The notes: a model not told the origin generated them from the letters alone. A stretch of DNA of 64,000 bases from Myxococcota bacterium (GCA_039030295.1 JBCCEK010000001.1:7633-71632); one strand, 5' to 3'; positions 21,922 through 57,382 are shown, counted from the first letter of the stretch. Program-made: numbers and translations.

Positions 21922-21979
21922 GCCGCCGCGGGAGGCCCCGTTTTGGCGACTCTCGCCAACCATTGCTAGAACCCCCTGG

Positions 21980-28670: not shown

Positions 28671-28732
28671 CGGTGGATCTTGGGCTCGCCGTAGCAGTAT
28701 GCAACTGCACACCGATCGTTACCTCGCGGCGA

Positions 28733-35160: not shown

Positions 35161-35243
35161 GACGTCATCCTAAGCGCGGCTGACATTCGCTCCAAGCAAT
35201 GTGGCCCTGTAGAGTCGGCCATGGCATCCAAGTGAGTGGGGTT

Positions 35244-38167: not shown

Positions 38168-39108
38168 GAGTACTCGTGACAGGGGGAGCGGGCTTCATCG
38201 GAAGCCACGTGGCCGAGGCTGCAGTCGAGGCCGGCCATGAGGTCCTCATCGTCGATGACCTCAGTACCGGGCGCGCCGAAAACCTACCCAGCGGGGCAGA
38301 CTTCCAGTCTTTGGACATCCGGGCTCGCGATCGGCTGTTGGCATTGGCCTCGGAGTTCCGTCCGGACGCAATCAGCCATCACGCCGCCCAGTCGAGCGTG
38401 TCGGTGAGCGTGCGTGACCCCGAGCTCGATGCCGATGTCAATGTGCTCGGTTCGCTGAATGTGGCCGGCGCCGCGAAGGCCGCGGGGAGTCGGCTCGTCT
38501 TCGCGAGCACCGGGGGCGCGCTCTACGGCGAGGTTCGCGAGGGGACCCTCGCCGGCGAGGAGTCTGCGCCTCAGCCGCTCAGTCCGTACGCCTGCGGGAA
38601 GGCGAGTTTCGAGCACTACCTCCGGGCCTTCGGCGACGCTGATGGGCTCCGCTATACGATTCTTCGCTACGGCAACGTTTACGGACCGCGGCAGGACCCT
38701 CACGGCGAGGCTGGGGTCGTCGCCATCTTCCTGAGGCGGCTCCTTCGCCGCGAACCGATACAAGTCAATGCGCGTGAAGTTCGAGGCGATCAGGGATGCG
38801 TCCGCGACTACGTGTTCGTTCGGGACGCCGTTCGCGCCAATCTCGCCGCGTTCGAGGGAGCGCTCGACCGGCGGAAGATCAACATCGCGACCGGCGTCGG
38901 CACGTCCACACGCTCGCTCGCGGAGCGGCTCGCGGCCCTGGTCGACGAACCCGCGATCATCAACGATGGCGCCCATCGGGCCGGAGACCTCGGCCGCTCG
39001 GTGCTCGACCCGGCCGTCATGATCTCGATCCTCGGGGAGCCCACACCCCTGGCACAAGGGCTCGAGGCCACGACCGAGTGGTTCCGAACCGAAGAGGGGT
39101 TGGCATGA
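38164..39108 (+). CDS. NAD-dependent epimerase/dehydratase (GalE-like UDP-hexose 4-epimerase)
   Basis: VLVTGGAGFIGSH, STGGALYG and YACGKAS (YxxxK). A 4-nt overlap with both neighbours. Confidence 0.85.
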   Translation: MRVLVTGGAGFIGSHVAEAAVEAGHEVLIVDDLSTGRAENLPSGADFQSLDIRARDRLLALASEFRPDAISHHAAQSSVSVSVRDPELDADVNVLGSLNVAGAAKAAGSRLVFASTGGALYGEVREGTLAGEESAPQPLSPYACGKASFEHYLRAFGDADGLRYTILRYGNVYGPRQDPHGEAGVVAIFLRRLLRREPIQVNAREVRGDQGCVRDYVFVRDAVRANLAAFEGALDRRKINIATGVGTSTRSLAERLAALVDEPAIINDGAHRAGDLGRSVLDPAVMISILGEPTPLAQGLEATTEWFRTEEGLA

Positions 39109-40382
39109 CCGAGCGAGTTGCCGTCATCGGCCTTGGCTACGTGGGCCTTCCCGTCGCCCTCGCTTTTGCACGAGAGTTCGAGAACACGGTCGGGTTCGAC
39201 ATCTCGAGCGAGCGCATCGAAGCCCTTCGCGCGCATTCCGATTGGACGCGTGAGGTGAGCGCCGAGGAGCTCCAAGCGACATCGCTTCAGCTCACCAGCG
39301 ATCCGGCCGATCTGCGCGGCTGCACCTTCTTCGTCGTGGCGGTGCCGACACCCATCGACGGTGACCGTCGTCCGAACCTCGACCCGCTCGTTTCGGCGAC
39401 GAAGATCGTCGGGAGCGCGATTGCGCCGGGCGCGGTAATCGTCTTCGAGTCGACCGTGTACCCGGGTGTCACCGAGGAGCGCTGCGGGCCGATCCTGGCC
39501 GAGGCGTCCGGCCTGACGCAGTCGAAGGACTTCAAGCTCGGATACTCGCCGGAAAGAATCAATCCAGGGGACACCGAACACACCTTCGAGAAGATCACAA
39601 AGGTGGTTTCCGGCGAGGACTCAGAGACCCTCGATCGCGTTGCCGCCGCCTACGAGCGGGTGGTCGAGGTGGGGGTGCACAGAGCGTCATCGATCAAAGT
39701 CGCGGAGGCCGCCAAGGTGATCGAGAACACGCAGCGGGACCTCAACATCGCGCTGATGAACGAGCTCGCGCTGATCTTCGACCGTCTCGACATACGGACC
39801 CAGGACGTCCTCGAAGCTGCCTCCACGAAGTGGAACTTCTTGCCGTTCTCACCCGGACTAGTGGGCGGTCATTGCATTGGCGTCGACCCCTATTACCTGA
39901 CTTCCAAGGCAGAGTCGGTTGGCTACCATCCGGAAGTGATCCTCGCAGGGCGTCGCATCAACGATGACATGGGTCGATACGTCGCCAAACGGATGATCAA
40001 GCTCCTTCGGCAGCATGGCCACGCGATCAAGGACTCCCGGGTCGGCGTCTTGGGTCTCACGTTCAAAGAGAACGTGCCGGATCTTCGGAACAGCCGTGTG
40101 CCGGACATCATCGAGGAGCTTCGGGACTACGGCGTCGAACCTCTGGTCCACGACCCACTGGCCTCTCCCGAGGAGGCCGGCCGCATTTACGGGATCGACC
40201 TCCGCCCTTGGGATGCGTTGACCGACCTCGACGGCATCGTCGTGGCAGTGCCGCATCGGTACTATCTCGACCAACTCGATCGAATCGTCGGCTCGGTCCG
40301 TCGAGATGGGGTTTTCGTGGACGTGAAGTCGGTCGTCGACCGAAAGCAGCTGCGCGACGACATCCGGTACTGGAGCCTCTGA
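39105..40382 (+). CDS. UDP-N-acetyl-hexosamine 6-dehydrogenase (TviB/WbpO/CapL-type nucleotide-sugar dehydrogenase)
   Basis: ATG at 39105 (ATGA overlap). VAVIGLGYVGLPVA, VAVPTP, KVIENTQRDLNIALMNE and the catalytic GGHCIGVDPYYL. Confidence 0.88.
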   Translation: MTERVAVIGLGYVGLPVALAFAREFENTVGFDISSERIEALRAHSDWTREVSAEELQATSLQLTSDPADLRGCTFFVVAVPTPIDGDRRPNLDPLVSATKIVGSAIAPGAVIVFESTVYPGVTEERCGPILAEASGLTQSKDFKLGYSPERINPGDTEHTFEKITKVVSGEDSETLDRVAAAYERVVEVGVHRASSIKVAEAAKVIENTQRDLNIALMNELALIFDRLDIRTQDVLEAASTKWNFLPFSPGLVGGHCIGVDPYYLTSKAESVGYHPEVILAGRRINDDMGRYVAKRMIKLLRQHGHAIKDSRVGVLGLTFKENVPDLRNSRVPDIIEELRDYGVEPLVHDPLASPEEAGRIYGIDLRPWDALTDLDGIVVAVPHRYYLDQLDRIVGSVRRDGVFVDVKSVVDRKQLRDDIRYWSL

Positions 40383-40386
40383 GCGT

Positions 40387-40995
40387 TCAGAAGAGGCGCT
40401 CCGGGACGAAGATGATGTCCCCAGCCGCGACCTCGATGTCGGCCGCCTGACCCCGTGTCACGCGCTCGACCGGAACCCGGTAGCGCACCGTCTGGCCGTC
40501 GACTCGACGAGTGACGACCGTTCCATCGCGGTCGGCTAACGAGGAAAAGCCCCCGGCCATGCTGATCGCCTGAACGACCGTCATACCAGGCGCGAGTGCG
40601 AAGGCACCCGGCTCCGCCACGGCACCCACGACGCTGATGCGCTTGGACGCGTAGTTCTCGACGTACACTGAGACGTGGGGTTCTTTGAGCATGTCCCGCT
40701 CACGAAGTTCGGTCTGGAGCTTGTCTGCAACTTCGGTCGGCTCGAGACCTGCGACCTGAACCGCCCCTATCAACGGAAAGTCGATGGTGCCGTCTGCGGC
40801 GACCTGATGTTCGCCCGAAAGCGAGTCCTCGCCGAACACGCGCACCGAGAACACGTCGCCGGGCGACAGCGTCGTGTCTTCGGTGGCAGGCGGCGGGACC
40901 TCGGTCACTTGGACGTTGCGCTTCGCGCAGCCTACGGCGAATGCGCTCGATGTGGCGAGGGCGACGACTAGTAGAAGACTCGAAGACCGATCCAT
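40387..40995 (-). CDS. short outer-membrane polysaccharide export (OPX) lipoprotein, Poly_export plus a single SLBB domain
   Basis: MDRSSSLLLVVALATSSAFAVGC lipobox; LSPGDVFSVRVFGE..LSGEHQVAADGTIDFPLIGAVQVAGL (PES motif region); an SLBB-like tail ..GDIIFVPERLF. At 202 aa it is too short to carry a Wza-type C-terminal OM helix. Confidence 0.8.
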   Translation of the reverse strand: MDRSSSLLLVVALATSSAFAVGCAKRNVQVTEVPPPATEDTTLSPGDVFSVRVFGEDSLSGEHQVAADGTIDFPLIGAVQVAGLEPTEVADKLQTELRERDMLKEPHVSVYVENYASKRISVVGAVAEPGAFALAPGMTVVQAISMAGGFSSLADRDGTVVTRRVDGQTVRYRVPVERVTRGQAADIEVAAGDIIFVPERLF

Positions 40996-42281
40996 GCTTG
41001 GACTTTCTGATACTGCGCGGTCGGATCGACGAGCGGCCCGATGCCGATGAACTGGAAATTGGTGAAGTCGGCCAGGTAGGCGACCTCGGCGAACATCGAG
41101 ATCCACGAGCGGAACCGATACTCCCCCCAAAGCGCCACACGAGTACGGATCCCCTCGCGTCGCGGTTCGGTGCCGACGAACGCGCCGTCAGGGCGCAACG
41201 CAAGCCCGCTCTTGTCGAACGAGACCCACGAACGGACTCCAACCACCAGCGCTCCCGCGGCGGTGAACGTCGCGTTGAGGTGTAGACGGTTGAAGCTGAT
41301 GAAGTTTCCGATGAACGACGGCACGGTGTCGCGGGTATACCCGCCATCGAGCTTGATGGTCGGCCTGGGGGTCCAACCCAACTCGACCCGCGCCGTGACG
41401 TCGTCGAAGTCTTCGAGCGCGTCGTACAAGCCGGCCGTGTATCCGACAAACGCAGCCAGTGACAGCGTGTTGGTCAAGGCGCCGTTGTAACCGATCTGGC
41501 TCTTCACCCGATTGTTGTCCGACAGGGCGGTCGGCGACAGGAAGACGAGCTCCGGGTTGACGTAGTCTTGATGGGCATACTCAAACTCGTACACGATCGC
41601 GGAGCTAGGAAAGAACCGCCAGCTCAGTTGCGCGGGAACGCGGTGCGTGAGGTTGTCCGCGTACTGGTAGAGCTGCGAATCGAAGAACACGAACGAGTTC
41701 CTGTAGCCGACCCTTCCCTCGAGGACTTCGCTTCGGCTGCGGACGACGAAGTCGACGCCGGCGTTGTTGGTGTTCAGGCCGTAGCTGGTGGTCTCTCCGA
41801 CCAGGACGTTCGGGTCCGAGAAGGGCTGCACGGTTCGGCGGAACCGGTCGTAAAGCTGCAAGGAAAATACGCGCGACGGGTTGTACGCGAAGTGGAAATG
41901 AGCGTCTGCGGCGACGTTGTCTCGAACCCTGTCGTTGAAGTAGTGCAAGTACTGTGCGCCGAGTCCGCCTCGGAACGTGATCTTCTGAGGCTCAGGTTTG
42001 CTGTCTCCCTGAGCTTGGCGTTGCGGGCCTTCAGTTGCAAAGTCCAAGTAGCCGGTCAGGCGGAGGATGAACGAGTCCTCGGTGTTGGTGTCTTGCAGGA
42101 ACACGTTGTTGTCGTAGCCCCCCTCGATGGCGAGGCCGGGGTGGAGCACAAAGCGGCCGGCCTTGAAGCCCGGGCCTTCGTTGGCGGCGCGGTCGGTCAA
42201 CGGCTGCGCGAGCCCGGTGCCCGACAGACACAACGTGGTCGCAGCAAAAACAACGCCAAGCTTTAGGCAGCGGCCCATCAA
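40968..42281 (-). CDS. outer-membrane beta-barrel protein (candidate partner of the short OPX)
   Basis: 437 aa with a signal peptide (VVFAATTLCLSGTGLAQ), alternating hydrophobic beta-strand pattern with frequent Y/F/G/N, and a terminal ...WIGLRVFY (aromatic C-terminus). Confidence 0.6.
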   Translation of the reverse strand: MMGRCLKLGVVFAATTLCLSGTGLAQPLTDRAANEGPGFKAGRFVLHPGLAIEGGYDNNVFLQDTNTEDSFILRLTGYLDFATEGPQRQAQGDSKPEPQKITFRGGLGAQYLHYFNDRVRDNVAADAHFHFAYNPSRVFSLQLYDRFRRTVQPFSDPNVLVGETTSYGLNTNNAGVDFVVRSRSEVLEGRVGYRNSFVFFDSQLYQYADNLTHRVPAQLSWRFFPSSAIVYEFEYAHQDYVNPELVFLSPTALSDNNRVKSQIGYNGALTNTLSLAAFVGYTAGLYDALEDFDDVTARVELGWTPRPTIKLDGGYTRDTVPSFIGNFISFNRLHLNATFTAAGALVVGVRSWVSFDKSGLALRPDGAFVGTEPRREGIRTRVALWGEYRFRSWISMFAEVAYLADFTNFQFIGIGPLVDPTAQYQKVQAWIGLRVFY

Positions 42282-42318
42282 CTCAATCCCCCTCCGCGCG
42301 ACCGCATTGGGCCTGGAC

Positions 42319-42906
42319 TCAGGTCACACCGCTGACAGGCGGGGGGATGTACGGAATAGGCGGGACGACAACCGGAGGCGTCACCGCTGGGTCCGCGCTG
42401 GGTGCGAATAGATCGACCTCTTGCCTCACTTTCGTGTCTCCGGTGTCGAACAGATCTTGGCCAACGCACTGGTTGGCCGCCTGCTGGAGCATCTTGAACT
42501 TTTGGGAGAGGACGCCGATCACAGCGAACTCGTGATTGCGGCTCCCCGTGTCGTTGGCGCGGATGGCATCGTCGAGAGCCGCTTGGCGCCGCTTCATGTT
42601 CTGAAGGTTGGCGTTGCACTGCGCCAGCTTGTCGTCGAGGCAGGTGGCCCGAATGATGTCTTTTTCGCTCTTGGCGCTCTGAAGCGCTTGTCCTTGGGCG
42701 TCGCAGGTCGCCCCTGCCTGGGCGACAGCGGCTTCCGTGGCCTCTTGCTGCTGGGTTGCGGTCAGCGCCGCGGGGCCCCCCTGGGCGCTCACGGAATCGA
42801 CCCGAACGACGTCCACCGTCGCATCACCGCTTTGGGCGATCGCATAACCGAGACCACTGCTGGCCAGCAGCACCCCCAAGCTCACGCGTGCGATCCGAGT
42901 AAACAT
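42319..42906 (-). CDS. secreted protein, unknown function (occupies the GltH/NfsH position)
   Basis: Start at MFTRIARVSLGVLLASSGLGYAIAQ (signal peptide). 4 Cys and a Pro-rich tail PPVVVPPIPYIPPPVSG. Assignment by position only. Confidence 0.45.
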   Translation of the reverse strand: MFTRIARVSLGVLLASSGLGYAIAQSGDATVDVVRVDSVSAQGGPAALTATQQQEATEAAVAQAGATCDAQGQALQSAKSEKDIIRATCLDDKLAQCNANLQNMKRRQAALDDAIRANDTGSRNHEFAVIGVLSQKFKMLQQAANQCVGQDLFDTGDTKVRQEVDLFAPSADPAVTPPVVVPPIPYIPPPVSGVT

Positions 42907-42930
42907 CAACGATCCCCTCAACTTGCGCCG

Positions 42931-42958
42931 ATTATACGCTCCACCCATCTCAAGTCAA
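42931..42958 (-). promoter_or_regulatory. near-consensus sigma-70-type promoter inside the envelope gene cluster
   Basis: The minus strand reads TTGACT (42958-42953), a 16-nt spacer, then TATAAT (42936-42931). A GAGGGGA Shine-Dalgarno-like element lies about 7 nt before the ATG at 42906. Confidence 0.5.
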
Positions 42959-43007
42959 TTCAGCCAAGATACAGTTAAGCGGCAATTTTGCCCTTGCGCC
43001 ACAAAAG

Positions 43008-44474
43008 CTAGTTCTGAGGCTGGAAAACAAAAGGATAGCGGAAAGTCACGCTTCCGCCCTCGGGTCCCGGGTTGAACCGGAAGCGGCTGATGGTCCGAGT
43101 CACGCAATCTGCCACCGCGGGGCTCCCCGTAGTGTTCTCGCTGGCCTTGGCGCCGGTCACGTTGCCGCGCTCCTGAATCGTAAAGGTGACTGTGACCTTC
43201 CCGGCGAGCCCTGGGTTCTTCCGGAGCTCCGACTCATAGCAGCGCGTGATCGATTTGATGCGCTGCTTGATCTGCCGCTGCACGAGGGCCGCGTCGAAGT
43301 CGCCCGATCCGCCGACGTCTCCTCCGCTACGGAGCCCCACATTGCCCCGGACAGCCCTCTCTTTGACCGCCGAACCTTCCTTCGCCGCCTTCCCCGCACC
43401 CTTGGAGGCCTTCAGGGAACCGAGCCCAGCCTGCTGGCCACTTCCTCCTCCGGTCCGCGTCCGGAGGGTACCGGTCTGGCTCTTCGTCGCAACCCCAACG
43501 CCGGAGGCTTGCGCCAACACGTCGGCAGCGTTTCCGGTCACCGCCCCACCCGCCAGGACGTCGCTCAACGCGCCGCCATCACTGCCAAGCGCGCCGAGGA
43601 GCATCGCTTCGGCCTGTGCCGCCGCCTCCTCGGCGATGCGCGCGCGTGCTTCGGCACTCACGACTGGGCTCGGCGCCGGCCCTGGGGCTTCCTTCGGCGC
43701 CGCCTTGTCGGGAGCTCGTTTCTCAGGTTTGTCGTCCTTGGCGGGTTTCTCCGCGTCGGCTTCTTCTTCGGCGTCGCCGACCTCTTCCTCGACTTCAGGG
43801 GGTTCGACGGGGGCCTCGAAAACCAACCGTGCGAGCGTCTCCGGAACCTCCTGCGATGCCTGCTCGACCTCCCAGTCGGCGTTCTCCAGGTAGATGATCG
43901 TCCCGAAGAACATCATGTACGAGAAGATCACCCAAGTCGTGAAGGTCCAGTCGATGTTCTTGGCGAACCCTCGCTGTACTGCGGCCGGGAGCTGGGGCTT
44001 CGGCGTGATCGGCGGCGCGGTCACGAACTCAAAGAAGACCGTGAAGTCCCCGATCCGGATGTTGCCGCGCGAAGTCTCTGCGAGCTTGATTTGGGCGTGC
44101 GTGCCAGCGTCTCGGGCTGCGCCCGTCTCTCGAAGGTGCTCGAGCCGCTGCACCCCACCAGGAAGCGCCACCTTCCCGCGCATGTCGTTGGTGAAGTTGA
44201 GGATGTAGTCGTCGCCGACCAGCTGGAACAGCTCAAATCGGGATTCGAGCTTGGGCGGTAGGGTGCCGGACTTGAGGATCAGGTGGTTCTTTGCGGCGGT
44301 GCCGATCGATACGGTTTCGCGGCGCCTCACGATACGCTCTTCGACGATCTTCTTGTCGCGGAAGAGGCCGATGCGCAGCACCTTGGGGCCACTCTTGCGC
44401 CCAGGAACGGCCTGCATCGCCATCGTCATGGCGCCTGGCTTGGTCGAAGGAGGTCGGCTGCGTGGCTCGGTCAT
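43008..44474 (-). CDS. bitopic inner-membrane protein with an AgmX/PglI-type (TonB-C-like) C-terminal domain (GltG/NfsG-like)
   Basis: 488 aa. Cytoplasmic beta-rich N-domain (VLRIGLFRDKKIVEERIV..ILNFTNDMRGKVAL), one TM (IDWTFTTWVIFSYMMFFGTIIYL), a Glu/Pro/Ala/Lys linker, and a C-terminus I(K)xxxCYESELRKNPGLAGKVTVTFTI...RFRF typical of AgmX/PglI C-domains. Confidence 0.7.
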   Translation of the reverse strand: MTEPRSRPPSTKPGAMTMAMQAVPGRKSGPKVLRIGLFRDKKIVEERIVRRRETVSIGTAAKNHLILKSGTLPPKLESRFELFQLVGDDYILNFTNDMRGKVALPGGVQRLEHLRETGAARDAGTHAQIKLAETSRGNIRIGDFTVFFEFVTAPPITPKPQLPAAVQRGFAKNIDWTFTTWVIFSYMMFFGTIIYLENADWEVEQASQEVPETLARLVFEAPVEPPEVEEEVGDAEEEADAEKPAKDDKPEKRAPDKAAPKEAPGPAPSPVVSAEARARIAEEAAAQAEAMLLGALGSDGGALSDVLAGGAVTGNAADVLAQASGVGVATKSQTGTLRTRTGGGSGQQAGLGSLKASKGAGKAAKEGSAVKERAVRGNVGLRSGGDVGGSGDFDAALVQRQIKQRIKSITRCYESELRKNPGLAGKVTVTFTIQERGNVTGAKASENTTGSPAVADCVTRTISRFRFNPGPEGGSVTFRYPFVFQPQN

Positions 44475-44755
44475 TAGAAGGGTTCCTCTTGCACGCTTCG
44501 AATCACGTCGCGCAGGAAGGTCGTTCGAAGTTCGAGCACCTCGTACCCGAGGTTCGAGCGGTTGAGGATATAGAATGCGTTGGGCTTCTGGACGCGACCC
44601 TCGATGACGATTTCCTCAAGTTGAATCACGCGGGGCTGGCGCTTTTTCTGCTGAGCCTGCGCCCTTGCTCCGGTGGCGTACGCCGACAACAGGATCGACA
44701 ACACGAAGATGCCCGTGAACATCGCGCGGAGCGCTTGGCGTGCTTGCATGGTCAT
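44474..44755 (-). CDS. small single-TM protein (GltF/NfsF position)
   Basis: 93 aa with an N-terminal hydrophobic helix (AMFTGIFVLSILLSAYA). Translationally coupled on both sides. Confidence 0.45.
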   Translation of the reverse strand: MTMQARQALRAMFTGIFVLSILLSAYATGARAQAQQKKRQPRVIQLEEIVIEGRVQKPNAFYILNRSNLGYEVLELRTTFLRDVIRSVQEEPF

Positions 44756-46110
44756 GGTGTGGCGTCCTCCCGCGCGCCCCGCTCCGCTTCGCGAGCCGCC
44801 CTCTCCCTGTCGCGTTCCATCCTCCGCTTCGCACGTTGGATCATACGGTCCAGGTCACGCAAGTATTCCCCTGATGGATCGTCCCGCCCGAGCCGAGGCC
44901 CCATCTGGTTCCGGTAGGTCTGGAACTCCTTCTTGGACTTCTCGAGGGCCGGTATCTCGTCGAGACCCGGGAACTCCGCCCCTGCCGACAAGTAGAGCAG
45001 ACCGAGCCCAAAATGGGCTTCGGGGAGCTTCGACTCGAGCTCGAGCGCGCGCAGGTACGATTGCTGTGCGTCGGTCCACCGTTCGAGGGCGCGGTACGCG
45101 TCACCGAGGTTGACGTGGACGGCTGGCAAGGTCGGCACGAGTTGCTGGGCGGCCTCGAAATGCGACGCCGCGGCCTCGTAGTTGCCGCCCGCCAGGAGCT
45201 GGACGCCGAGCGCCATCCTGGCTTCCGCGTAGTCGGGGCGGAGCGCCACTGCGCGTTCGTAGGCTTCGAGCACCTCGCGGAGCTTGCCGGGCTCGTCCTT
45301 GAGCTGTTCGCCGAGGAGGTAGTGGAGTTCGGCGACGTTGGGATCAACCGCCAAGGCCTGGGCCAGGATCGAGTCGGCGAGCTCGTCCCTCCCCTGAGCG
45401 CGACTCGCCTTCTCGAGGGCGATCAAGGCCGGGACAAACCGCTCGTCGCATTTGAGGGCGCGCCTCGCCGCCAACCAGGCTTCTTCGTACCTTCGTGCCT
45501 CGACCAACACCTCGGCGTAGAGGGCTTGGATCTCCAGGTTGGTCCTGTAGTCGTTGGCGATCGGCTCGACGATGGCGACTGCACCCTTGGCGTTGCCGCG
45601 ACGAAGGTCGATGATTGTGAGCCCGCGAGCGGCCGGCTCGTAGTCTGCCAATGCCTCGAGAGCGCGCCGGTAATAGGCGAGCGCTTGCCGTTCGTCCCCG
45701 GCTCGGTCCGCGAGCACGCCGAGGTTGTACAAGGCGGGGTACGCCGCAGCGTCCTTCTTGATCGCATCTTTGAAGTATCCCTCGGCGGCGGACACGTTGC
45801 CGTTGTCGAGTTCGCGGACGCCGCGGTCGAAAGACTTGCGGGCCTTGGAGGCCATCGCCGGCCGCGCCGGACGTCGACACTGCTCGGCGCGAGTTGCGCC
45901 CCAGGGGCTCTGCGCGTCGGGTGCGTTCGATTCGGCTACGGCGTCACCGACCTGAGATCCCGGCGGCGATCCCGGGGCCGTGGTCGAAGTCGGTCCGGGG
46001 GACGACTCCCCGCCGGTCGTCTCTTCGGCGTTCGGTTCCGTCGTTTCGCCGCCTTGGCATCCAAGGGTCAACAACGAGAGTGCCGCCACGAGTCGAACGA
46101 GCCTACCCAT
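44752..46110 (-). CDS. TPR-repeat lipoprotein (GltE/AglT/NfsE-like)
   Basis: Start at the ATG at 46108-46110 (MGRLVRLVAALSLLTLGC lipobox). Multiple 34-aa TPR units (AYPALYNLGVLADRAGDERQALAYYRRALE...). 452 aa. Confidence 0.6.
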   Translation of the reverse strand: MGRLVRLVAALSLLTLGCQGGETTEPNAEETTGGESSPGPTSTTAPGSPPGSQVGDAVAESNAPDAQSPWGATRAEQCRRPARPAMASKARKSFDRGVRELDNGNVSAAEGYFKDAIKKDAAAYPALYNLGVLADRAGDERQALAYYRRALEALADYEPAARGLTIIDLRRGNAKGAVAIVEPIANDYRTNLEIQALYAEVLVEARRYEEAWLAARRALKCDERFVPALIALEKASRAQGRDELADSILAQALAVDPNVAELHYLLGEQLKDEPGKLREVLEAYERAVALRPDYAEARMALGVQLLAGGNYEAAASHFEAAQQLVPTLPAVHVNLGDAYRALERWTDAQQSYLRALELESKLPEAHFGLGLLYLSAGAEFPGLDEIPALEKSKKEFQTYRNQMGPRLGRDDPSGEYLRDLDRMIQRAKRRMERDRERAAREAERGAREDATP

Positions 46111-49100
46111 CACGGAGTCTCCTGCTTGATTGCCGGCGGAGCCACGCCGGGTCGAATCTCCATCGGCCTGCCGCGCGGGGACCTCGCGAACTCCCCTGGC
46201 GTGTACCCTTGGAAGGTTCGGTCTCGCGCCTGGGCCTCGGCGATGCACTCTGCGATGCGCTCGTCCCCGTATGCCTGTAAGCGGTCGATCGCGGTTTGGG
46301 TGTACTGGTCGTCGAAGCTTCCTGCGCGGGCGGCTCGTGCTGCCAACGCGTAGCGCGCCACGGCGAAGCACTCGATGGGCCGAACCTTCTCATCGAGCAG
46401 CTGACGCACTCGGTCTTCGACCTCGAGGCGAATGTCCTCGCGGTCATACTCGTCGAGCTTTCGAAGCTGTTTTTGCATGTCGAGCGGCATCGCGAAGGGC
46501 GCGTTCAAGACGGCCCGCGCCAGGATCTCATAGGTCCTTCCTTGCCGTACAAACGACGCGATCGTCCAGCGGGGTCTTCGGTACTCGAGGACGGGCTCGT
46601 AGCCCTCGACGATCGACTGGGCCTCGGCGCTGCCTTGGTCGATCTGCTTGGCCAAGGTGCCGGTGTAGCCCTCCATCGTTCGGGGTCGGCCGACCTTGAT
46701 CTCGTACTCCTCGAAGTCGTCGATGCGACCGTCGGCCAGAATGAAGCGCGCCTCTGCGGCGTAGCCCGCCGCAACCGAACCGGCGGGCTGGCCGGTCCGT
46801 TCGAACGCCTTGGTTACGTCCAGGAGGGCAGCCCGGTATTCACGGTTCCGACCCCGCGCCTTCTCGGATTGGGCGATGCGCCAGTACGCCTGGACCACCA
46901 ACTCTCCGGCCTGGTCGTCGTTCCCATACGCCGCGATGAAGTTGCGCATGCCTCCGATGGCCTCTGCGTAGCGCCTCTGCCGATAGGCCATCTCGCCGAT
47001 TCGGTAGAGGGCCGTACGCTTCACCTCGGGATCATCGACCGTCTCATAGACGCGTCGATAGTACTTGGTGGCCTCTTTGTACTGCTGGAGCTGCTCCAGC
47101 ATGATCGCGGAGTTCACCAAGCCGTCTGCGCGCTTCTGCTGAACGGCAGGGTCGGTCGAACTCGCGAAGCGCTGGGAGTCCGCGAGGACCCGGTAGTTCT
47201 CGACGGCCCGATCGAAATCGAAGTACCGAGCAGCGTTGTACGCGAGCTTGAAGTGCGCGTTGGCGAGGATCGCATCGAGGCTTTGTTGCTCCTCGGGATC
47301 TTCCGCCTCGCGGGGACCCACCTCGTCGATAATTCGCTGGTACAGGGTTCCTGCAGACTCGTAGCGATTGGTCGCCTCGAGCGCAAGGGCGGCGTACTCG
47401 AGTGCGATCGGGGCCTGCTTGTCGTTCGGGTTGGCATTCACGGCGCTCAGCAGCATCGTGGCGGACTGCTCGTAGAGTGCCTGCTGCTCGGCCCCGCTGG
47501 CCTGGCCCGCCTGGCGGTAGACCTCGAGCGCGTCTTGATACACGAGGGCGTTGAGGTCGGCTCCCGCCCGGCAAATCGGCTGTTCTCGGTTGGCGGCCTT
47601 GCTGCAGTCGATCGCGGCAGAACCGGCCGAGAACGTGCACCCCCGTTCCTGGATATCGGTCGCGAGGCGTCGGATCTCGGCGGAATCCTCTTCGGCGACC
47701 GCCATCGCACGTAGGTTCTCCCAGGCGACCCGGCCCGTTGCGTCAGCTTCGGGCCCTGAGCAACGCTCCTCGTAGATCCGGGTGAATCGAGACTTCGCCT
47801 GTGGCCAGTAGCCGTACCAGTAGAGAAGCAGCGCGTTGTTGTAGTCGTAGGCGGGTCGCACCCCTTCGACGTCACGCGTCGGACCGACACGGCTGAGATA
47901 GATCTCTCTCGCCCGCGCAAGGCGCTGCACCGTCGAAGGCATCGCCACCGGGGCGACCGTAGGCGGCTGTCCGACAGGCGGAGGCGCGTCTTCGCGGACG
48001 ACCAAGCGTCCCTCCTCGACGTCGCGGTCCGAGATCCGCTTGAGCGATTCGACGACCCGGCGAGCGGACTCCGACATGTACGTGTCGTCGACGTTCGAGT
48101 CTCGCACCTCGGCGTACTCGGTGGCGGCCTGCTCGTAGTCCTCGGACCAGTAGAGCGTGTCGGCGAGATTGTAGTTTAGCTCGTACCCCTGGGGGTTGTT
48201 CGGATAGCGCTCGAGGTACTCGCGATAGGCGGTCGCCGCGAGTGCGTACTCGCGTTGGGCGTCGCGGCAGAGGCGGACGTTGCGCTCTTCCACGCACTGC
48301 TGCCGGAGTCGCTGTGCGCGGGAGTGGTGATGGATGGCCGTCACGATGAGCGCGTTCTCTGCAAGCTGCTCGGCGTTCTGTTGTTCGCGGGGGTACTCCA
48401 TGTTGGCGTTCCACCACGGGCTCCCCTGGACGTACTCGGTCAACTCGCCCCGCGTCGCGATCGCTTCGTCGAACTCGTTGTGCATCTGGTGTGCCACGGC
48501 GACGTCGTTGAGCACTTCTGGCGCGCGCGGGTGGTTCGGCCACTTTCGGAGGGCGAGGCGCCACGCCGCGATCGCCTCGGGATACTTGGCTTCGTCGAAG
48601 TACACCTGGCCAAGTTGGAAATAGACCTCCGGCGTCCAAGCCCGATCTTGAGGCATCAGGCTGGCGTCCTGGATTCGTTCGATCCCGGTCGCCTGACCTT
48701 CGAGCCGGTCGGCCACCTGGTTCTCGTTCCAGTCGTCGTAGGCAAATGCAATGCCGAGATACTCGATCGCTTCGGGGCGAAGCTCAGATCCCGCCCTTCC
48801 TGTCTCTCGCTCCGCGTCATCCGACCACTGAACGAGCTTCGAGAAGTTTCGAATGGCCTCGGGATAGCGGCTTGCCCGGTAGTAGGCCCAGGCGACCTTG
48901 TAGAGGGCGAGGTTGTAGTTTCGATCTTCAGGGTCTTCGAGAATTCGGTCGTATGCGGCGATCGAAAGATCGAGTGCATTCTCGCCACCGAAGTCGTCGA
49001 AGTGGTACTCGCCGATCCGAAACCAGGTCTCGCTCACGAAACGGGCATCGGGCGACGTCGGTTCGCACCCCTCGTAGGGATCGACGAACGCGCCTCCCAC

Positions 49101-49988
49101 GTTGGCACCGAGCGGCCGTCCGTCGAGGGTGAGCGCTGGGTACTTCGCAAGCTCGGCCGAGGAAGCCCCGAGAGGCGGCGGGCGCCAATCCGGGTCGTAG
49201 TCGTACTTGTTGTCGCAGACGAGGGCGAGCCAGGCCGCGACGGCCTCCTCGGGTCGACCCGACTCGTTCAGGGTGTAGCCGATCAGATAGTAGACCCCGT
49301 CCGAACGCTCGTAGTTGGGGAAGCGGCGCGCGAGTTCCTTGTAGAGTTCGATCGTCGGGTTGAAGTCGGGGGATGCCGGTAGATTGTCCTCCGCCGTCAG
49401 GTCCCCAGCCTCGCGTGCCGCCTGCGCCTCGTCGTAGAGGTCTTGGAACTCGACGGCGCTCTCCTCGAAGTACAGCTCGCCGAGCCGGAACATCGCGTCG
49501 GGCGTGTAGCCAGGCTCGTTGGGATAGGCCTCGATGAAGCGCTCGAACGCCTCGATCGCCTCACGTCGAGCGTCGTTGAACGCTTGGTCCTCGGCCTCGA
49601 TCTGAACCCCATACCAACGGTCGCGGGCGCGTCGTTGCTGGAGGTACTCCCGGCGCACCAAGGAGGTGACCGTGTCTCGGAAAGTTCCCCCACTCTCCGA
49701 GAAGCGTCCGACCTCTTCCTCGAGCTGGCGGAGCGCATCGAGCTGCGCCGCGGTCGGCGAAGGTCGTTCGTCGACGACGCGCTTCTTCGTGTCCTGAAGA
49801 AAGGGCGGGAGGGTCGTATCGGTCGCGCCCTCCCAAGGGGTGGCGTCAACATCTTCGGTCCGAGGCGCGTCTCGATCCACGTCGGGCGCGCTCTTCTCTT
49901 CGGGCTCTTGGGCAACCGCGGTCGAGGTGCTTGCGCAGAGCGCCCCCGCAGTGAGCAGGACCAGAACCGCCGAACGTAGCCCGTTCAT
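46110..49988 (-). CDS. giant periplasmic TPR protein (GltD/AgmU/NfsD-like)
   Basis: 1292 aa with a signal peptide (VLVLLTAGALCASTSTAVAQ) and TPR-like helical repeats throughout (many ..A...Y......P.... units). Confidence 0.6.
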   Translation of the reverse strand: MNGLRSAVLVLLTAGALCASTSTAVAQEPEEKSAPDVDRDAPRTEDVDATPWEGATDTTLPPFLQDTKKRVVDERPSPTAAQLDALRQLEEEVGRFSESGGTFRDTVTSLVRREYLQQRRARDRWYGVQIEAEDQAFNDARREAIEAFERFIEAYPNEPGYTPDAMFRLGELYFEESAVEFQDLYDEAQAAREAGDLTAEDNLPASPDFNPTIELYKELARRFPNYERSDGVYYLIGYTLNESGRPEEAVAAWLALVCDNKYDYDPDWRPPPLGASSAELAKYPALTLDGRPLGANVGGAFVDPYEGCEPTSPDARFVSETWFRIGEYHFDDFGGENALDLSIAAYDRILEDPEDRNYNLALYKVAWAYYRASRYPEAIRNFSKLVQWSDDAERETGRAGSELRPEAIEYLGIAFAYDDWNENQVADRLEGQATGIERIQDASLMPQDRAWTPEVYFQLGQVYFDEAKYPEAIAAWRLALRKWPNHPRAPEVLNDVAVAHQMHNEFDEAIATRGELTEYVQGSPWWNANMEYPREQQNAEQLAENALIVTAIHHHSRAQRLRQQCVEERNVRLCRDAQREYALAATAYREYLERYPNNPQGYELNYNLADTLYWSEDYEQAATEYAEVRDSNVDDTYMSESARRVVESLKRISDRDVEEGRLVVREDAPPPVGQPPTVAPVAMPSTVQRLARAREIYLSRVGPTRDVEGVRPAYDYNNALLLYWYGYWPQAKSRFTRIYEERCSGPEADATGRVAWENLRAMAVAEEDSAEIRRLATDIQERGCTFSAGSAAIDCSKAANREQPICRAGADLNALVYQDALEVYRQAGQASGAEQQALYEQSATMLLSAVNANPNDKQAPIALEYAALALEATNRYESAGTLYQRIIDEVGPREAEDPEEQQSLDAILANAHFKLAYNAARYFDFDRAVENYRVLADSQRFASSTDPAVQQKRADGLVNSAIMLEQLQQYKEATKYYRRVYETVDDPEVKRTALYRIGEMAYRQRRYAEAIGGMRNFIAAYGNDDQAGELVVQAYWRIAQSEKARGRNREYRAALLDVTKAFERTGQPAGSVAAGYAAEARFILADGRIDDFEEYEIKVGRPRTMEGYTGTLAKQIDQGSAEAQSIVEGYEPVLEYRRPRWTIASFVRQGRTYEILARAVLNAPFAMPLDMQKQLRKLDEYDREDIRLEVEDRVRQLLDEKVRPIECFAVARYALAARAARAGSFDDQYTQTAIDRLQAYGDERIAECIAEAQARDRTFQGYTPGEFARSPRGRPMEIRPGVAPPAIKQETP

Positions 49989-52396
49989 GGTTGCCCCTCA
50001 TCGAGCTGGTCCATCACGTCGCGAAACTCGTCGTCGAGCGCTTGGATCTCACGCGCACGCTCGCGCGTCAGCGCATCGATCCGCAGGCGGCGGTCCTCTC
50101 GTTTCGCCCAGGCGACGTCGATCTTGCCCACGTCGGCACGGAGCACCAAGTCGTGAAACCGTCGGCGAATCCGTTGAAAGTTGAGATAGGTGACCGTCCC
50201 GACGACTTCCTCGGTCTCTCCTTCGAGGCCTTGGAGTGCGCGTCGGTACCGAACGAGGTTCCGGGTCTCGTCATCGACGATCAACATCATCCTCGAGACT
50301 CGTTTCTTCACCACCGCGTCGATCTCGGCATCGCGCTGGTCGAGCTTCGTCTCAATAGCGGCGATCCGTCCATGCGCGATGTCGAAGGCCGCGCCCCCGG
50401 AGCCGGTGATCTGTCGTTCTCGATCGACGATGTCGTTGAACTCCGAACGCTCGACGTCGTCCGCTTGATAGCGCTCGTCACCGACGCCGATGTGCAATCT
50501 GCCGACCTCGAGCTTTCGGCGAATCTGGACGAGTTGGTCCTCGTACTGAGCGATCTCCGCTTCGTGCTCGGCGAGTTGTGCCTCGAGCGCCGCTTGGTCG
50601 ACTTTGTTGGGGTCGACTGCGGCCATGCCGTTCTTGGACGCCACGATGCGCGCCTCGAGGCCCAAAATTTCGACGCGTAGATCCTGCAGCTGGCGCTCGA
50701 GGGCGCGAAACTTGTCGATCTCCTCGAAGTCGCGCTCGACGAATTCCTCGGTATTGACCGGCATGGCCATGACACTGGCCTGAAGCTCACGGCGTCGCGC
50801 TCGAATCCGCTCGGCTTGGGTCGTTCGTTTCGCGTCGGTCAGCGCGTTCTCCTCGCCGTCGACGTAGGCCCCTCGGAGCCGCGCGAGCCGGTTGCGGAGG
50901 GCTGTCGTCCGCTCGCGCTGTCTTCGGAGGTCGGAGAAGACCGCAAGGCCGTTCGGGGCCGCGAGGACCGCCGTGACACGAGCGGCCAGCTCATCGGTCT
51001 CCTCGACGAGTCGCTTGGCTTCGCTCAGGTCTTCGAGGACGCCGAGGGCGCGTTCGTAATCTCCCTCGACTCGCACCCAAGCTCTCGCCCGTTCGGGAAG
51101 AAACGCATCAATGTCGAAACCCTCGAGGTTTTGCCTCACAAGGTCTCGAAAGTACTGCGGCAAATCAGGGTGATCGATTTCGGTCTGATCGAGTTCTGCG
51201 CGGATCGGCCCGAACTGTTCGCGGATTTCGTCGAAAACGTCTTCGGCCTCGTTGTATCGGGCGGCGCGTGCCAGCAACTCGCCTCGGAGGACTTTGCCGT
51301 CAGCGTTGAGCGGACTTGCCGGGGCGGCGATCGACAAGACTTCGAGTGCACGCTCCGCCTGGACCGCGTCGCCCATCGCGATGTAGGTCCAAGCCAGCTC
51401 GTAGAGGGCGACGTCGAAATCCGGGGAAGTCTGCGGGACCGCCCGATACGCGTCGACTGCTTGTTCGAGCTGGCCGGTTTCGTAGTAGACCCGACCCAAG
51501 GCCAAGTAGGTAAGCTCGACCACTTCGCTTTCCGCCTCGTTGAGGGGTTCGTGCCCGAGAACCGTCCGAAACGCCGCGATGGCGTCCACGTACTCCGCGC
51601 GAAGGATGTGAATCGTCCCGACGAAGTACTTGGCGCGAAGGGAGTAACTCGTTCCGCTTGGTATGGCGAAGAAGCCCGCCCTCGCCTGCTCGAGACGGGC
51701 CATGTCGATCCCGACGATCGGTTGGTCCGTCCGCGCGTTCATCACCTGGGTGATCGGGACGGCTCGATTGTAGAGATACTTGGCCCGGTAGTAGGCCGTG
51801 GTGACCGAGAGTCCGGCTGACGGCATGGCCTCGAGCTTCGCGAAATAGGCGTCTACCCCCCGAAAGTCCTGCGTGTTGATGGAGATCTGGATCAAGCGGC
51901 TCAATGCCGGCTCGACGAACGGCGTGAAGGCCGGTTCGGCACCCCGATCGATGACCTCTTCATAGCGCCGCTTCGCGCCGAGGTTGTCGCCCGCCAAGAA
52001 GAGCGATTCGCCGAGAAGGAACAGGGCCTCAGGATAAGCGCGATGGCCAGGGTCGTGTTCGACGATGTCGGTGAAGAGAATGGCCGCCCGGAGGTAGTCC
52101 TCGAGCCGAAGGTAGAGTTCACCGTCTGTGAGGCGCTCCTCGACGAACGTATCGCTCCGAAGTGTTTCCACGCGAACGGGTTGCCGAAGGAGCCTCTCGG
52201 CATCGGACTCGACGTCGCTGAGCTGTCGACCGAGTTGATTGAGGTCCTGGGCTTGGCCTTGGACGGGGCCCCATGACAACGCGACGACGCACAAAGCCGT
52301 CGCCGTCGCACAGAGGCTCTGGTACCTCCGAGTCAAACCGCACGCCCTTCCAACTTCCGGTGAGGGCGGCGATGGAGTCGCCCCACGGCGTCGCAT
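49985..52396 (-). CDS. TPR plus long coiled-coil protein (occupies the GltC/NfsC position)
   Basis: 803 aa. N-terminal hydrophobic segment (ALCVVALSWGPVQGQAQ), TPR units in residues ~60-400, and heptad-rich Glu/Arg/Leu/Gln coiled coil in the C-terminal half. Confidence 0.5.
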   Translation of the reverse strand: MRRRGATPSPPSPEVGRACGLTRRYQSLCATATALCVVALSWGPVQGQAQDLNQLGRQLSDVESDAERLLRQPVRVETLRSDTFVEERLTDGELYLRLEDYLRAAILFTDIVEHDPGHRAYPEALFLLGESLFLAGDNLGAKRRYEEVIDRGAEPAFTPFVEPALSRLIQISINTQDFRGVDAYFAKLEAMPSAGLSVTTAYYRAKYLYNRAVPITQVMNARTDQPIVGIDMARLEQARAGFFAIPSGTSYSLRAKYFVGTIHILRAEYVDAIAAFRTVLGHEPLNEAESEVVELTYLALGRVYYETGQLEQAVDAYRAVPQTSPDFDVALYELAWTYIAMGDAVQAERALEVLSIAAPASPLNADGKVLRGELLARAARYNEAEDVFDEIREQFGPIRAELDQTEIDHPDLPQYFRDLVRQNLEGFDIDAFLPERARAWVRVEGDYERALGVLEDLSEAKRLVEETDELAARVTAVLAAPNGLAVFSDLRRQRERTTALRNRLARLRGAYVDGEENALTDAKRTTQAERIRARRRELQASVMAMPVNTEEFVERDFEEIDKFRALERQLQDLRVEILGLEARIVASKNGMAAVDPNKVDQAALEAQLAEHEAEIAQYEDQLVQIRRKLEVGRLHIGVGDERYQADDVERSEFNDIVDRERQITGSGGAAFDIAHGRIAAIETKLDQRDAEIDAVVKKRVSRMMLIVDDETRNLVRYRRALQGLEGETEEVVGTVTYLNFQRIRRRFHDLVLRADVGKIDVAWAKREDRRLRIDALTRERAREIQALDDEFRDVMDQLDEGQP

Positions 52397-53115
52397 TACC
52401 GATCGCCCTCACCCTCTGCGTCGGGGCGCGCTTGCCTCTCGATCCGCTCGATGTACCGGACCGCCGGACGCTCTTCGAGCGGTGTCGTGGGACCACCCTT
52501 TTCGTAGCCAACGACCACCACGGTGGCGACCCTTCCCTCGGGAACGGAGAAGTTGTAAGTCGACCGAACTTTGAACCGGTAGCCCTTCAGATACGAGAAC
52601 ACACCATAGCCGTGGCCGCGATACTCGAGGTTCACTGTGAGGGTGTGCTCGCCGGGGACGATGCTGCCGTTGTAGACCTCAAACTCCTTCTGTTCCCCGA
52701 GCGTTCCCTCTTCGTCGGCCTTGGTGAAGATCGGGGCGCCGTCGAGCGCGTAGGCCACCCGCACGAGCTTGAAACCGTCGGACATTCGGTTCTCATGGAT
52801 GATGACCGCTTGGCCCCCCCCAACGACGCCTTCGAGTACCGTCTCCGCCAACAACGACAGTCGCGCTTTGGATCGGAAGATCTGTTCTTTCAATTCGTTG
52901 ATGCGCTGCTCGAGGTCCCGAAGGCGGACCGCGTAGGTGCCGGCATCGATCGGTTCGGCGGCGGGCGGTGGAGACGGCTGGCTCGGCGCGGCCGAGCTGG
53001 CGCCGTCTGTGGCCTCCGGGCTCTGAACTTGCTGTTCACCGGTCTGTGCAACGCCGATAGCGGCGCTCACCGCTAGGCACGCCACAACGACAGTCAGCGC
53101 AACGATCCCGCGCAT
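52396..53115 (-). CDS. secreted protein: Pro-rich linker, short coiled coil, beta-rich C-domain; unknown function
   Basis: 239 aa with a signal peptide (IVALTVVVACLAVSAAIGVAQ), PSQPSPPPAAEP, LRDLEQRINELKEQIFRSKARL, then a beta-strand pattern (TLTVNLEYRGHGYGVFSYLKGYRFKVRSTYNFSV). First gene of the operon. Confidence 0.5.
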   Translation of the reverse strand: MRGIVALTVVVACLAVSAAIGVAQTGEQQVQSPEATDGASSAAPSQPSPPPAAEPIDAGTYAVRLRDLEQRINELKEQIFRSKARLSLLAETVLEGVVGGGQAVIIHENRMSDGFKLVRVAYALDGAPIFTKADEEGTLGEQKEFEVYNGSIVPGEHTLTVNLEYRGHGYGVFSYLKGYRFKVRSTYNFSVPEGRVATVVVVGYEKGGPTTPLEERPAVRYIERIERQARPDAEGEGDR

Positions 53116-53175
53116 CGCGATTCCCCTCTAAGTGACCACCATCTGAAGCGAAATTGCTCCGCAGTGGCTCACGCG

Positions 53176-53205
53176 CTTATACCAAAGCGCCTCCGCCCGG
53201 GTCAA
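53176..53205 (-). promoter_or_regulatory. candidate sigma-70-type promoter of the envelope operon
   Basis: The minus strand reads TTGACC (53205-53200), an 18-nt spacer, then TATAAG (53181-53176). GAGGGG lies about 8 nt before the ATG at 53115. Confidence 0.4.
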
Positions 53206-53306
53206 TGAAGGTCACCCGGATGTGTCGTGTCCGACACCCCGAGAACTCGAGCGTTGTCATCCACTTGCGGGCGAAGACCCGAAAGCGCCGAGTGCCCTCT
53301 TCAGAA

Positions 53307-54122
53307 TTAACGGGTCAGCCGGGCGAGGAGGCTCTGCCAGCGCGAACGCCGGGCAGAGGCCGGGCCTTCGGCGAGCCCTCGGGCTCGGTCGAGTGCCACG
53401 GAGAAATCACGGTGAACCTCCACCAGGTCGAGGTCGATGGCGGCTTCCCGGATCGCGGCCTGCCATCTCTCGTCGACACCAGAGAAAAGACAGACCCCGC
53501 CGAGCATCCGCACGACTTCGCCGGCAGAGGACAACGCGACCGCGCGCTCCCGACTCGCCTCGCCGAGCTGGGACACGTCCACGATGGCGATCTCGGACCC
53601 AGCCTCCAGCATCGCGCGCCCGAGGGCGTCGACTTGCTCGCGAATCACCTCCGGCTCGTGAGATCCGGTGAGAACCAGCGCGAAAACGTCTTGGTCGATC
53701 CTGATCGGACGCAAGTATCGCGTGGCCTCGAGCTCGTGCTGGAGGAGCACGCGTTCCTCTCGACCCATCACGAAGCCCTCGATCATGGCGGCGGCCGCGC
53801 GTTCCGAGAATCGCCGCGCGGGCATGGCACCGTCGTCCTCTGCCGATCGAAGCGCAAGGTGCACGATCTGCACCGCGGCGGTTGGCGTGAGGTCGAGGAG
53901 CGCCAGTCGTCGGCCGAGCAGCGTCAGGACCGTCAGGCACTCACGAAACTGGAACGACTCGTAGTCCCCTTCGGCACGCTCGCTCGCGGGCAGCTCCCGG
54001 AGCAAAGGGAGGAGCGGAGCCGTCTCCCGCACCACATCGTTAAGGTCGACTCCGCCGGTCGGCGGCTTCGTCCGTTCAAGAAGTGCGCGCAGACGTTCTT
54101 CGGGTGTTTCCGCATTCATCAC
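53307..54122 (-). CDS. STAS-domain protein (RsbR-like sensor/antagonist architecture)
   Basis: 271 aa. The C-terminal half (VFALVLTGSHEPEVIREQVDALGRAMLEAGSEIAIVDVSQLGEAS...MLGGVCLFSGVDERW) follows the STAS pattern. The N-terminal helical domain is unassigned. Confidence 0.45.
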   Translation of the reverse strand: MMNAETPEERLRALLERTKPPTGGVDLNDVVRETAPLLPLLRELPASERAEGDYESFQFRECLTVLTLLGRRLALLDLTPTAAVQIVHLALRSAEDDGAMPARRFSERAAAAMIEGFVMGREERVLLQHELEATRYLRPIRIDQDVFALVLTGSHEPEVIREQVDALGRAMLEAGSEIAIVDVSQLGEASRERAVALSSAGEVVRMLGGVCLFSGVDERWQAAIREAAIDLDLVEVHRDFSVALDRARGLAEGPASARRSRWQSLLARLTR

Positions 54123-54182
54123 GCGCGGTTGACTCTAACACTCTTTGTGGTGGGGGTTGTCCGCCGTGATATAGAACCGGAG

Positions 54183-57295: not shown

Positions 57296-57382
57296 CGCTC
57301 CCCGCGCTGCGACTGACGGACCCCCCTCAAACCGGTCCTCCACGGGGAATCTTACCGCAAACGGGCCATCCATGCTCGGTGG

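Follow-up and report, generated by a model that had tools for sequence, protein, structure and literature searches.

In a 64,000-nt stretch of genomic DNA from a Myxococcota bacterium (GCA_039030295.1, JBCCEK010000001.1:7633–71632; hereafter the window, with coordinates counted from its first letter), nine genes on the minus strand at 40387–53115, numbered g1 to g9 in their order along that strand, are by sequence and gene order the Polyangiales counterpart of the nine-gene envelope cassette MXAN_1924–1915 of Myxococcus xanthus. The first six genes resemble the Glt/Nfs trans-envelope module, and the last three include an outer-membrane beta-barrel and an outer-membrane polysaccharide export (OPX) lipoprotein of the WzpB/WzaB kind. 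We hold with moderate confidence that the locus has this identity and that its G4-type module works with the WzpB/WzaB-type exporter; the chances that the module is coupled to the OPX translocon, considered separately, are about evenly balanced.

The cassette begins with g1 (52396–53115, 239 aa), g2 (49985–52396, 803 aa), g3 (46110–49988, 1292 aa), g4 (44752–46110, 452 aa), g5 (44474–44755, 93 aa) and g6 (43008–44474, 488 aa). These are chained by overlaps of 1 nt at 52396, 46110 and 44474 and of 4 nt at 49985–49988 and 44752–44755. They are followed by g7 (42319–42906, 195 aa), g8 (40968–42281, 437 aa) and g9 (40387–40995, 202 aa), where g8 and g9 overlap by 28 nt. The longest open reading frame (ORF) of g7 has 209 aa; a conserved leader with a Shine-Dalgarno sequence runs exactly up to the ATG at 42906, which makes the 195-aa form the real one. 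Gene picking based on G+C content at third codon positions backs the frames of all nine genes. An earlier note on this DNA had listed nine minus-strand ORFs with these lengths and start/stop overlaps, and both the list and its domain calls are borne out: tetratricopeptide repeats (TPR) in g2, g3 and g4, lipoboxes in g4 and g9, TonB_C and AgmX/PglI domains in g6, Poly_export and SLBB domains in g9, and a barrel in g8.

The M. xanthus locus was reached through the sequence of PDB chain 9n9a, to which an M. xanthus protein is 100% identical; the window proteins were then compared by blastp with the products of the locus of that protein, WzaB. The genes upstream of wzaB run on its strand and encode proteins of 809, 1111, 495, 91, 447, 148 (cyclic-nucleotide-monophosphate (cNMP)-binding), 203 and 421 aa, the last being WzpB (MXAN_1916). 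Each of g2–g9 has its best match in the positional counterpart at this locus, all on one strand and in unchanged order (by blastp, and by hhalign for g8), and the lengths run in parallel, 809/1111/495/91/447/203/421/204 aa in M. xanthus vs 803/1292/452/93/488/195/437/202 aa in the window. Numbered backwards from wzaB, the gene for the 1111-aa protein is MXAN_1922, which was described as the gltD homologue of an uncharacterised "G4" cluster of unknown function (Luciano 2011, PMC3169522). Supplementary file 5 of that study lists as Glt homologues MXAN_1919 (447 aa), 1920 (91), 1921 (490), 1922 (1111) and 1923 (809), and our locus-tag numbering and protein lengths fit it. The remaining gene, g1, is paired with MXAN_1924 by way of a homologue (54% identity, E 5e-46) in an Archangiaceae metagenome-assembled genome (MAG), which lies between mglA-like and C-like genes; since mglA and mglB of M. 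xanthus are MXAN_1925 and MXAN_1926, the position fits.

It had been proposed that the locus is an undescribed arrangement, in which modules known from Nfs and Exo have been fused. M. xanthus carries the collinear set MXAN_1923–1915, and therefore the "fusion" is present in the model organism too, is not new, and is rightly compared with G4 plus WzpB/WzaB instead of Nfs plus Exo. The same gene order in M. xanthus also rules out a lineage-specific fusion.

The assignment of g2–g6 to the Glt/Nfs type stands, as sub-threshold NCBIfam matches to GltC, GltE, CglF/GltF and GltG show. Protein g2 scores 59 bits (4e-16) against GltC, g4 94 bits (1.2e-26) against GltE, g5 25 bits (1e-5) against CglF and g6 158 bits (2.6e-46) against GltG, where the equivalog cut-offs are 450, 225, 90 and 650 bits. 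The matches lie far under the cut-offs, and therefore the proteins are Glt-type, not Glt; the G4 proteins of M. xanthus give the same sub-threshold pattern. The TPR and coiled-coil protein g2 has MXAN_1923 as its counterpart, with similarity at the C-terminus only (36% identity to the end of the M. xanthus protein, blastp 8e-15), and is also homologous to the C-like gene of a related locus (L083). The secreted TPR giant g3 is 26% identical to MXAN_1922 over 1152 aa (E 2e-87), and both match only TPR models of the YbgF/BamD type in NCBIfam and Pfam. The TPR lipoprotein g4 has the lipobox LTLGC and matches MXAN_1921 (blastp 1e-32). The small envelope protein g5 is 53% identical over 57 aa to the 91-aa MXAN_1920 (E 9e-18).

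The bitopic GltG-type protein g6 has a cytoplasmic N-domain, one transmembrane helix (WTFTTWVIFSYMMFFGTIIYL), a Pro/Ala/Gly-rich linker and an AgmX/PglI TonB_C-like C-domain. The match to myxo_SS_tail, the C-terminal domain of AgmX/PglI, exceeds the cut-off of that model (1.7e-27), as does the match to TonB_C (33.4 bits vs 24.6), and the combination of anchor, proline-rich linker and TonB_C is the architecture of a TonB/TolA-like transducer. The GltG model is matched at positions 197–647 of 650, leaving out about 200 N-terminal residues that include the FHA region, and Pfam finds no FHA domain in g6. Similarly, MXAN_1919, to which g6 is 35% identical over 463 aa (E 2e-57), matches positions 224–649 and has no FHA region. 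The membrane-proximal motifs conserved in the GltG family are kept in g6. In an exhaustive search, its top 150 relatives in the library are all 440–500 aa long and include the M. xanthus G4-type representative but no 640-aa GltG-type protein; this representative, 65% identical to the G protein of the M. xanthus G4 cluster, ranks about 52nd of 17,551 matches when ordered by similarity.

The first gene product, g1, consists of a signal peptide, a Pro/Ser-rich linker, a single long helix and a beta-rich domain. It has no match in Pfam or NCBIfam, its profile gives only coiled-coil noise against PDB sequences, and a single-sequence AlphaFold2 model is poor (pLDDT 50). It is nevertheless the best-conserved cassette protein between distant clades, with 48–56% identity in the third clade described below.

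The pairing of a barrel with a short OPX protein, also proposed earlier, is confirmed in g8 and g9 and is of the WzpB/WzaB (ExoB/ExoA-like) kind. Protein g9 is a Class-3 OPX lipoprotein of the WzaB type (MXAN_1915; 44% identity, blastp E 8e-46), with Poly_export and one SLBB domain, matches to the short OPX models EpsE and EpsY, and no C-terminal outer-membrane helix. It aligns end to end with PDB chain 9n9a (E 2e-37), consistent with the WzaB crystal structure described in PMC12819527. The cysteine of its lipobox FAVGC, Cys19 in WzaB, is conserved in 44 of 44 aligned sequences sampled. Its terminal Phe is likewise conserved, and the penultimate residue is Leu, Val, Met or Ile in Polyangiales (..ERLF) vs the WzpB-binding Phe203-Phe204 of WzaB. 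Protein g8 is a WzpB-type barrel by hhalign with 30 orthologues (99.5%, E 4.6e-23, 349 columns); pairwise blastp to WzpB is weak (9e-4), Pfam and NCBIfam give only weak EpsL/BBP2_2 matches, and no PDB sequence matches. The first gene of this exporter unit, g7, encodes a secreted protein that looks helical, not barrel-like, with four Cys and a proline-rich tail. No Pfam or NCBIfam family matches it, and its homologue is the 203-aa MXAN_1917 (blastp E 8e-14). The suggestion that g7 is GltH/NfsH-like had been drawn from position alone and is not upheld, MXAN_1917 not being among the Glt homologues of Luciano 2011.

Conservation was followed in two sets of loci. When GTDB species genomes were scanned with an alignment of g3, 80 loci from MAGs of Polyangiales/Sandaracinaceae type were obtained, and gene order in them was determined by tblastn. 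Another 80 loci, the third clade, came from a metagenome scan with an alignment of six sequences that belong to a much more divergent group of G proteins; one representative of this clade is labelled a Polyangiaceae MAG. All nine genes are found in 38 Polyangiales loci and are collinear in 37 of them; of the 41 loci with sufficient sequence, 40 have g7–g9 after g6. The order is broken in two loci only: L044 has no g7–g9 after g6, and L047 has a g7 homologue after g9. In the third clade, where g3 and g8 are each about 27% identical to the window proteins, the nine genes are collinear in all 17 complete loci, and g7–g9 follow g6 in 33 of 33. The nine-gene order is thus more than chance, and G4, MXAN_1917, wzpB and wzaB make up one deeply conserved cassette across Myxococcota, found in the window and about 75 related loci.

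What surrounds the cassette changes. The polysaccharide genes that abut g9 are sugar-nucleotide genes in the window, a gene for a Wzx-type flippase in L050, and genes for initiating transferases of the GT4 family in L058 and L068; the downstream flanks in the third clade are unrelated housekeeping genes. The Wzx-type and GT4 genes agree with the arrangement published for S. amylolyticus, where, according to published remarks, the WzaB orthologue adjoins homologues of WzcB, WzyB and WzxB.

The cassette is best read, from promoter-like motifs, as two adjacent transcription units, g1–g6 and g7–g9. Upstream of g1 lies a predicted, near-consensus sigma70-type promoter (53176–53205, minus strand) with the -35 element TTGACC at 53205–53200, an 18-nt spacer and the -10 element TATAAG at 53181–53176. 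It is followed by a 60-nt leader (53116–53175, minus strand) with the Shine-Dalgarno sequence AGGGGA and a mini-ORF. The promoter and leader are conserved in about 33 loci of the close clade, where the leader is near-invariant. The mini-ORF (53142–53128, minus strand; ATG GTG GTC ACT TAG, MVVT*) has four codons, ends 12 nt before the g1 start and could encode a regulatory leader peptide or belong to an RNA element; Rfam and tRNA scans of the window, leader included, gave no match. A second predicted sigma70-type promoter precedes g7 (42931–42958, minus strand; TTGACT, 16 nt, TATAAT) and agrees with the consensus at 11 of 12 positions. Of 31 close-clade loci, about 30 keep both this site and its leader. 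The g6–g7 gap contains TTGACA-N17-TATACT in distant Polyangiales and in 58 of the 60 third-clade loci, often after a terminator-like hairpin with a T-run. Because conserved promoter-like sites precede both g1 and g7 and hairpins follow g6 in relatives, the nine genes are probably not the single operon that the earlier note had described.

Two NtrC-type sigma54 activators lie beside the cassette, at 53154–55580 (plus strand, divergent from g1) and 55952–57373 (minus strand). The divergent activator, which usually adjoins g1 in Polyangiales, has an N-terminal region of about 345 aa without a family. The predicted g1 promoter lies inside its called ORF, and therefore its true start is probably further downstream. 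A search for sigma54 promoters (TGGCAC-N5-TTGC, at most one mismatch) yielded none near g1 or g7 and a number of matches no higher than chance, so control of the cassette by the divergent activator is unsupported.

By homology and gene order, the first unit is a G4-type paralogue of the Glt/Nfs trans-envelope complex with g1 as a cassette-specific secreted component, and the second comprises the MXAN_1917-like secreted protein, a WzpB-type porin and a WzaB-type OPX protein; for the way they work we propose the following mechanism. In M. xanthus, WzaB, WzpB and WzcB form a trans-envelope complex for secretion of the biosurfactant polysaccharide (BPS) (PMC12819527), where porin and OPX protein are the outer part of the Wzx/Wzy-dependent exporter, and BPS is rich in N-acetylmannosaminuronic acid (ManNAcA). 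By comparison, g8 and g9 may export an anionic polysaccharide containing amino-uronic acids, assembled by Wzx, Wzy and a polysaccharide co-polymerase (PCP) encoded elsewhere, from precursors supplied in part by the neighbouring TviB/PglF-type enzymes. Protein g6 would take energy from a proton channel of the TolQR/AglRQS type, also encoded elsewhere, and this energy could be passed via the periplasmic TPR scaffold g2–g4 to the outer-membrane translocon or the emerging polymer. The parallel, by analogy, would be the Agl-Nfs machine, which moves the spore-coat polymer secreted by Exo (PMC3858216). A more far-reaching version is offered tentatively, and we rate it as somewhat less probable than its negation: G4 may be the dedicated partner of the WzpB/WzaB translocon, driven by proton motive force, and make up a third functional class of Agl/Glt-like machines that powers or directs the secretion or the spreading over the surface of a biosurfactant-type polysaccharide, with g1/MXAN_1924 and g7/MXAN_1917 as adaptors between the two modules; the cassette would then be an ancestral secretion device of the Myxococcota and Nfs/Exo a later, split derivative.

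Several observations weigh against a working link between the two halves. The two units have separate conserved promoter-like sites, often with a terminator-like hairpin between them, and therefore their adjacency does not imply co-transcription. A Pfam scan of about 45 ORFs in the window found no MotA/ExbB, ExbD, Wzx, Wzy, PCP or polyisoprenyl-phosphate hexose-1-phosphate transferase (PHPT), as the earlier note had said of a motor, Wzx/Wzy, PCP and initiating transferase, and the M. xanthus locus likewise has none of these within 10 kb; the lack of motor and assembly genes in the window contradicts the view of a self-contained machine. The similarity of g3 to GltD runs, at the level of sequence, through MXAN_1922 as intermediate. 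In g9 the WzcB-binding Arg106-Arg107 of WzaB is replaced by Lys-Glu; most Polyangiales have Arg and then Asn, Ala or Asp at the equivalent position. With a polar insertion in MXAN_1922, M. xanthus still glided normally, and no appreciable change of motility was reported (PMC3169522); the swarm spreading of BPS-minus mutants, in contrast, is reduced. WzaB, WzpB and WzcB interact directly with each other in the absence of G4 proteins (PMC12819527), and the link between G4 and polysaccharide is itself proposed from sequence and analogy.

Much of this would be expected if the two units were neighbours by history, g7–g9 being an ordinary Class-3 OPX exporter and g1–g6 serving an unrelated envelope role such as a Tol-Pal/TonB-like function in tethering the outer membrane, envelope integrity or the transport of another cargo. 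The conserved promoter-like site before each unit, the terminator-like hairpins that separate g6 from g7 in relatives, the polar MXAN_1922 mutant without a reported motility defect and the assembly of the WzaB-WzpB-WzcB complex without G4 proteins all agree with such a history. So do the matches of g3 and MXAN_1922 to YbgF/BamD-type TPR models and the position of the BPS assembly genes of M. xanthus, 1 Mb from wzaB, which is why wzaB has been called "orphan-like". Nevertheless, the units are adjacent in 73 of 74 testable loci, although the proteins have diverged to 22–35% identity and everything outside the nine genes has changed, and so deep a retention without co-transcription is usually functional. 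Moreover, g7/MXAN_1917 and g1/MXAN_1924 are found only with the cassette. Historical adjacency is considered unlikely, yet it is the most serious competitor of a G4-type module that works with the exporter.

Alternatively, g2–g4 could act in trans as a passive TPR chaperone, such as is present in cis in PgaA, BcsC and AlgK-AlgE, that guides the polymer from the PCP and OPX protein to a PgaA-like WzpB barrel, with g6 as a mere inner-membrane anchor and no motor. WzpB-type barrels are homologues of the PgaA barrel without its TPR domain (PMC9603273), g4 has weak TPR-level matches to BcsC and PgaA models, and motor genes were found neither among the window ORFs scanned nor within 10 kb of the cassette in M. 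xanthus. These TPR matches are generic, however, and in g6 the TonB_C/AgmX-PglI domain is retained along with the membrane-proximal motifs of the GltG family, whose prototype interacts with AglR (PMC3169522). The motor of Glt and of Nfs is likewise encoded at a separate locus, and a passive scaffold is judged improbable. That the cluster is the Agl-Glt gliding machinery of this organism, as homology to GltC, GltE, GltF and GltG might suggest and as many Polyangiales do glide, is rejected as hardly credible, since all scores fall far below the NCBIfam equivalog cut-offs, g6 is without the FHA-containing N-terminus of GltG, the cluster has no counterparts of GltA, GltB, GltK, GltH, GltI or GltJ, and it is of the G4 type, whose M. 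xanthus mutant glides normally.

A G4-type module working with a WzpB/WzaB-type exporter would bring together two lines of research on M. xanthus that have run apart: the Glt/Nfs field left G4 without a function, and the polysaccharide field left wzaB as "orphan-like". G4 (2011) and wzaB/wzpB (2020–2026) are known piecemeal, and the link at the level of the cassette is unreported as far as the literature searched shows. That literature makes no mention of MXAN_1917–1921 or MXAN_1923; the BPS papers checked do not mention Glt-like neighbours, and none was found that links G4 to the OPX translocon. The cassette gives G4 a concrete and testable candidate role, and raises the possibility that Class-3 OPX translocons work with partners that are energised or scaffolded. 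A true link would carry the concept of surface directional motors that act on polysaccharides beyond sporulation; a false one would leave the locus as no more than an orthologue of genes already known.

Downstream, sugar-nucleotide genes identified by domain annotation (34228–40382) converge on g9, in agreement with the earlier note. They encode an NDP-sugar pyrophosphorylase (minus strand), two epimerases/dehydratases of the short-chain dehydrogenase/reductase family, a PglF/WbpM-type 4,6-dehydratase and a TviB-like UDP-N-acetylglucosamine 6-dehydrogenase, and their linkage to the cassette is confined to the closest clade (L001–L041). The stop codons of g9 (40387–40389) and of the dehydrogenase (40380–40382) are 4 nt apart, which leaves no room for an intergenic terminator. 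As called, the dehydrogenase ORF (38164–40382, plus strand, 528 aa) overlaps the preceding epimerase gene by about 300 nt; the TviB match begins only at residue 107, which probably puts the real start near 39105–39115. In several distant Polyangiales loci (L075, 20787–22151; L066, 19570–20925) the genes next after g9 are an NTP_transf_5 gene and one for a small protein with MshEN, a domain that binds cyclic di-GMP, and a 401-aa MshEN protein is encoded in the window at 9321–10523, about 30 kb from the cassette. Genes for second-messenger binding therefore recur near the cassette. Unrelated genes of the window include a radical-SAM/DUF3641 gene (27603–28718, minus strand), a multihaem cytochrome gene with c554/c7-type motifs (21560–23485, plus strand) and a gene for a hybrid response-regulator histidine kinase (8051–9277, minus strand).

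Among known systems the closest is the M. xanthus cassette itself. Order and strand are the same (C, D, E, F, G, MXAN_1917-like, barrel, OPX), neither locus contains motor or assembly genes, and the M. xanthus genes have 4-nt overlaps at the C/D and D/E junctions. The Cystobacterineae cassette differs in an extra gene for a 148-aa cNMP-binding protein between the G and MXAN_1917-like genes (L082, 7503–7949; L083, 19948–20394), and in its position directly downstream of the polarity genes mglB/mglA (MXAN_1926/1925; L083, 7279–8362). Neither feature occurs in the window or in any Polyangiales or third-clade locus, and by this distribution they look lineage-specific, not defining. The window in turn has the divergent sigma54 activator upstream and the convergent sugar-nucleotide genes downstream; identities to the M. 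xanthus proteins are low (24–53%), and the twin-Arg motif of WzaB is not kept.

With Agl-Nfs and Exo/MASC (ExoA/WzaS, ExoB/WzpS), the window cluster shares a Glt-type C-D-E-F-G module in one gene row and, as proposed here, a Glt-like machine that acts together with a polymer leaving the cell via a Class-3 OPX/barrel translocon (for Nfs/Exo, PMC3858216, PMC9603273). It differs in that nfs and exo lie at separate loci and nfs has the NfsA/B barrels and NfsH, whereas the window cluster is of the G4 lineage and has no known link to sporulation. The Agl-Glt gliding machinery has a homologous TPR scaffold and TonB-like transducer, and its motor is likewise encoded elsewhere; in contrast, the window cluster is without GltA, GltB, GltK, GltH, GltI and GltJ, stays under the equivalog thresholds, and has an M. 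xanthus counterpart whose mutant glides.

The Class-3 OPX translocons (EpsY/EpsX, ExoA/ExoB, WzaB/WzpB and the PEP-CTERM pair EpsE/EpsL) resemble g8 and g9 in an OPX protein of about 200 aa that is lipidated and lacks the Wza_C helix, and in an OPX gene beside a gene for a barrel of about 430 aa. The pair in the window lies inside a Glt-like cassette, as do WzaB/WzpB, and not in a Wzx/Wzy/PCP cluster. The Tol-Pal and TonB-ExbBD systems share a TonB_C-type domain on a bitopic inner-membrane protein, here g6, and YbgF/CpoB-like TPR units, here in g3. TolQR/ExbBD, TolB and Pal are not encoded nearby, the TPR proteins of the window are much larger, and the C-domain of g6 is of the AgmX/PglI subtype with two conserved Cys.

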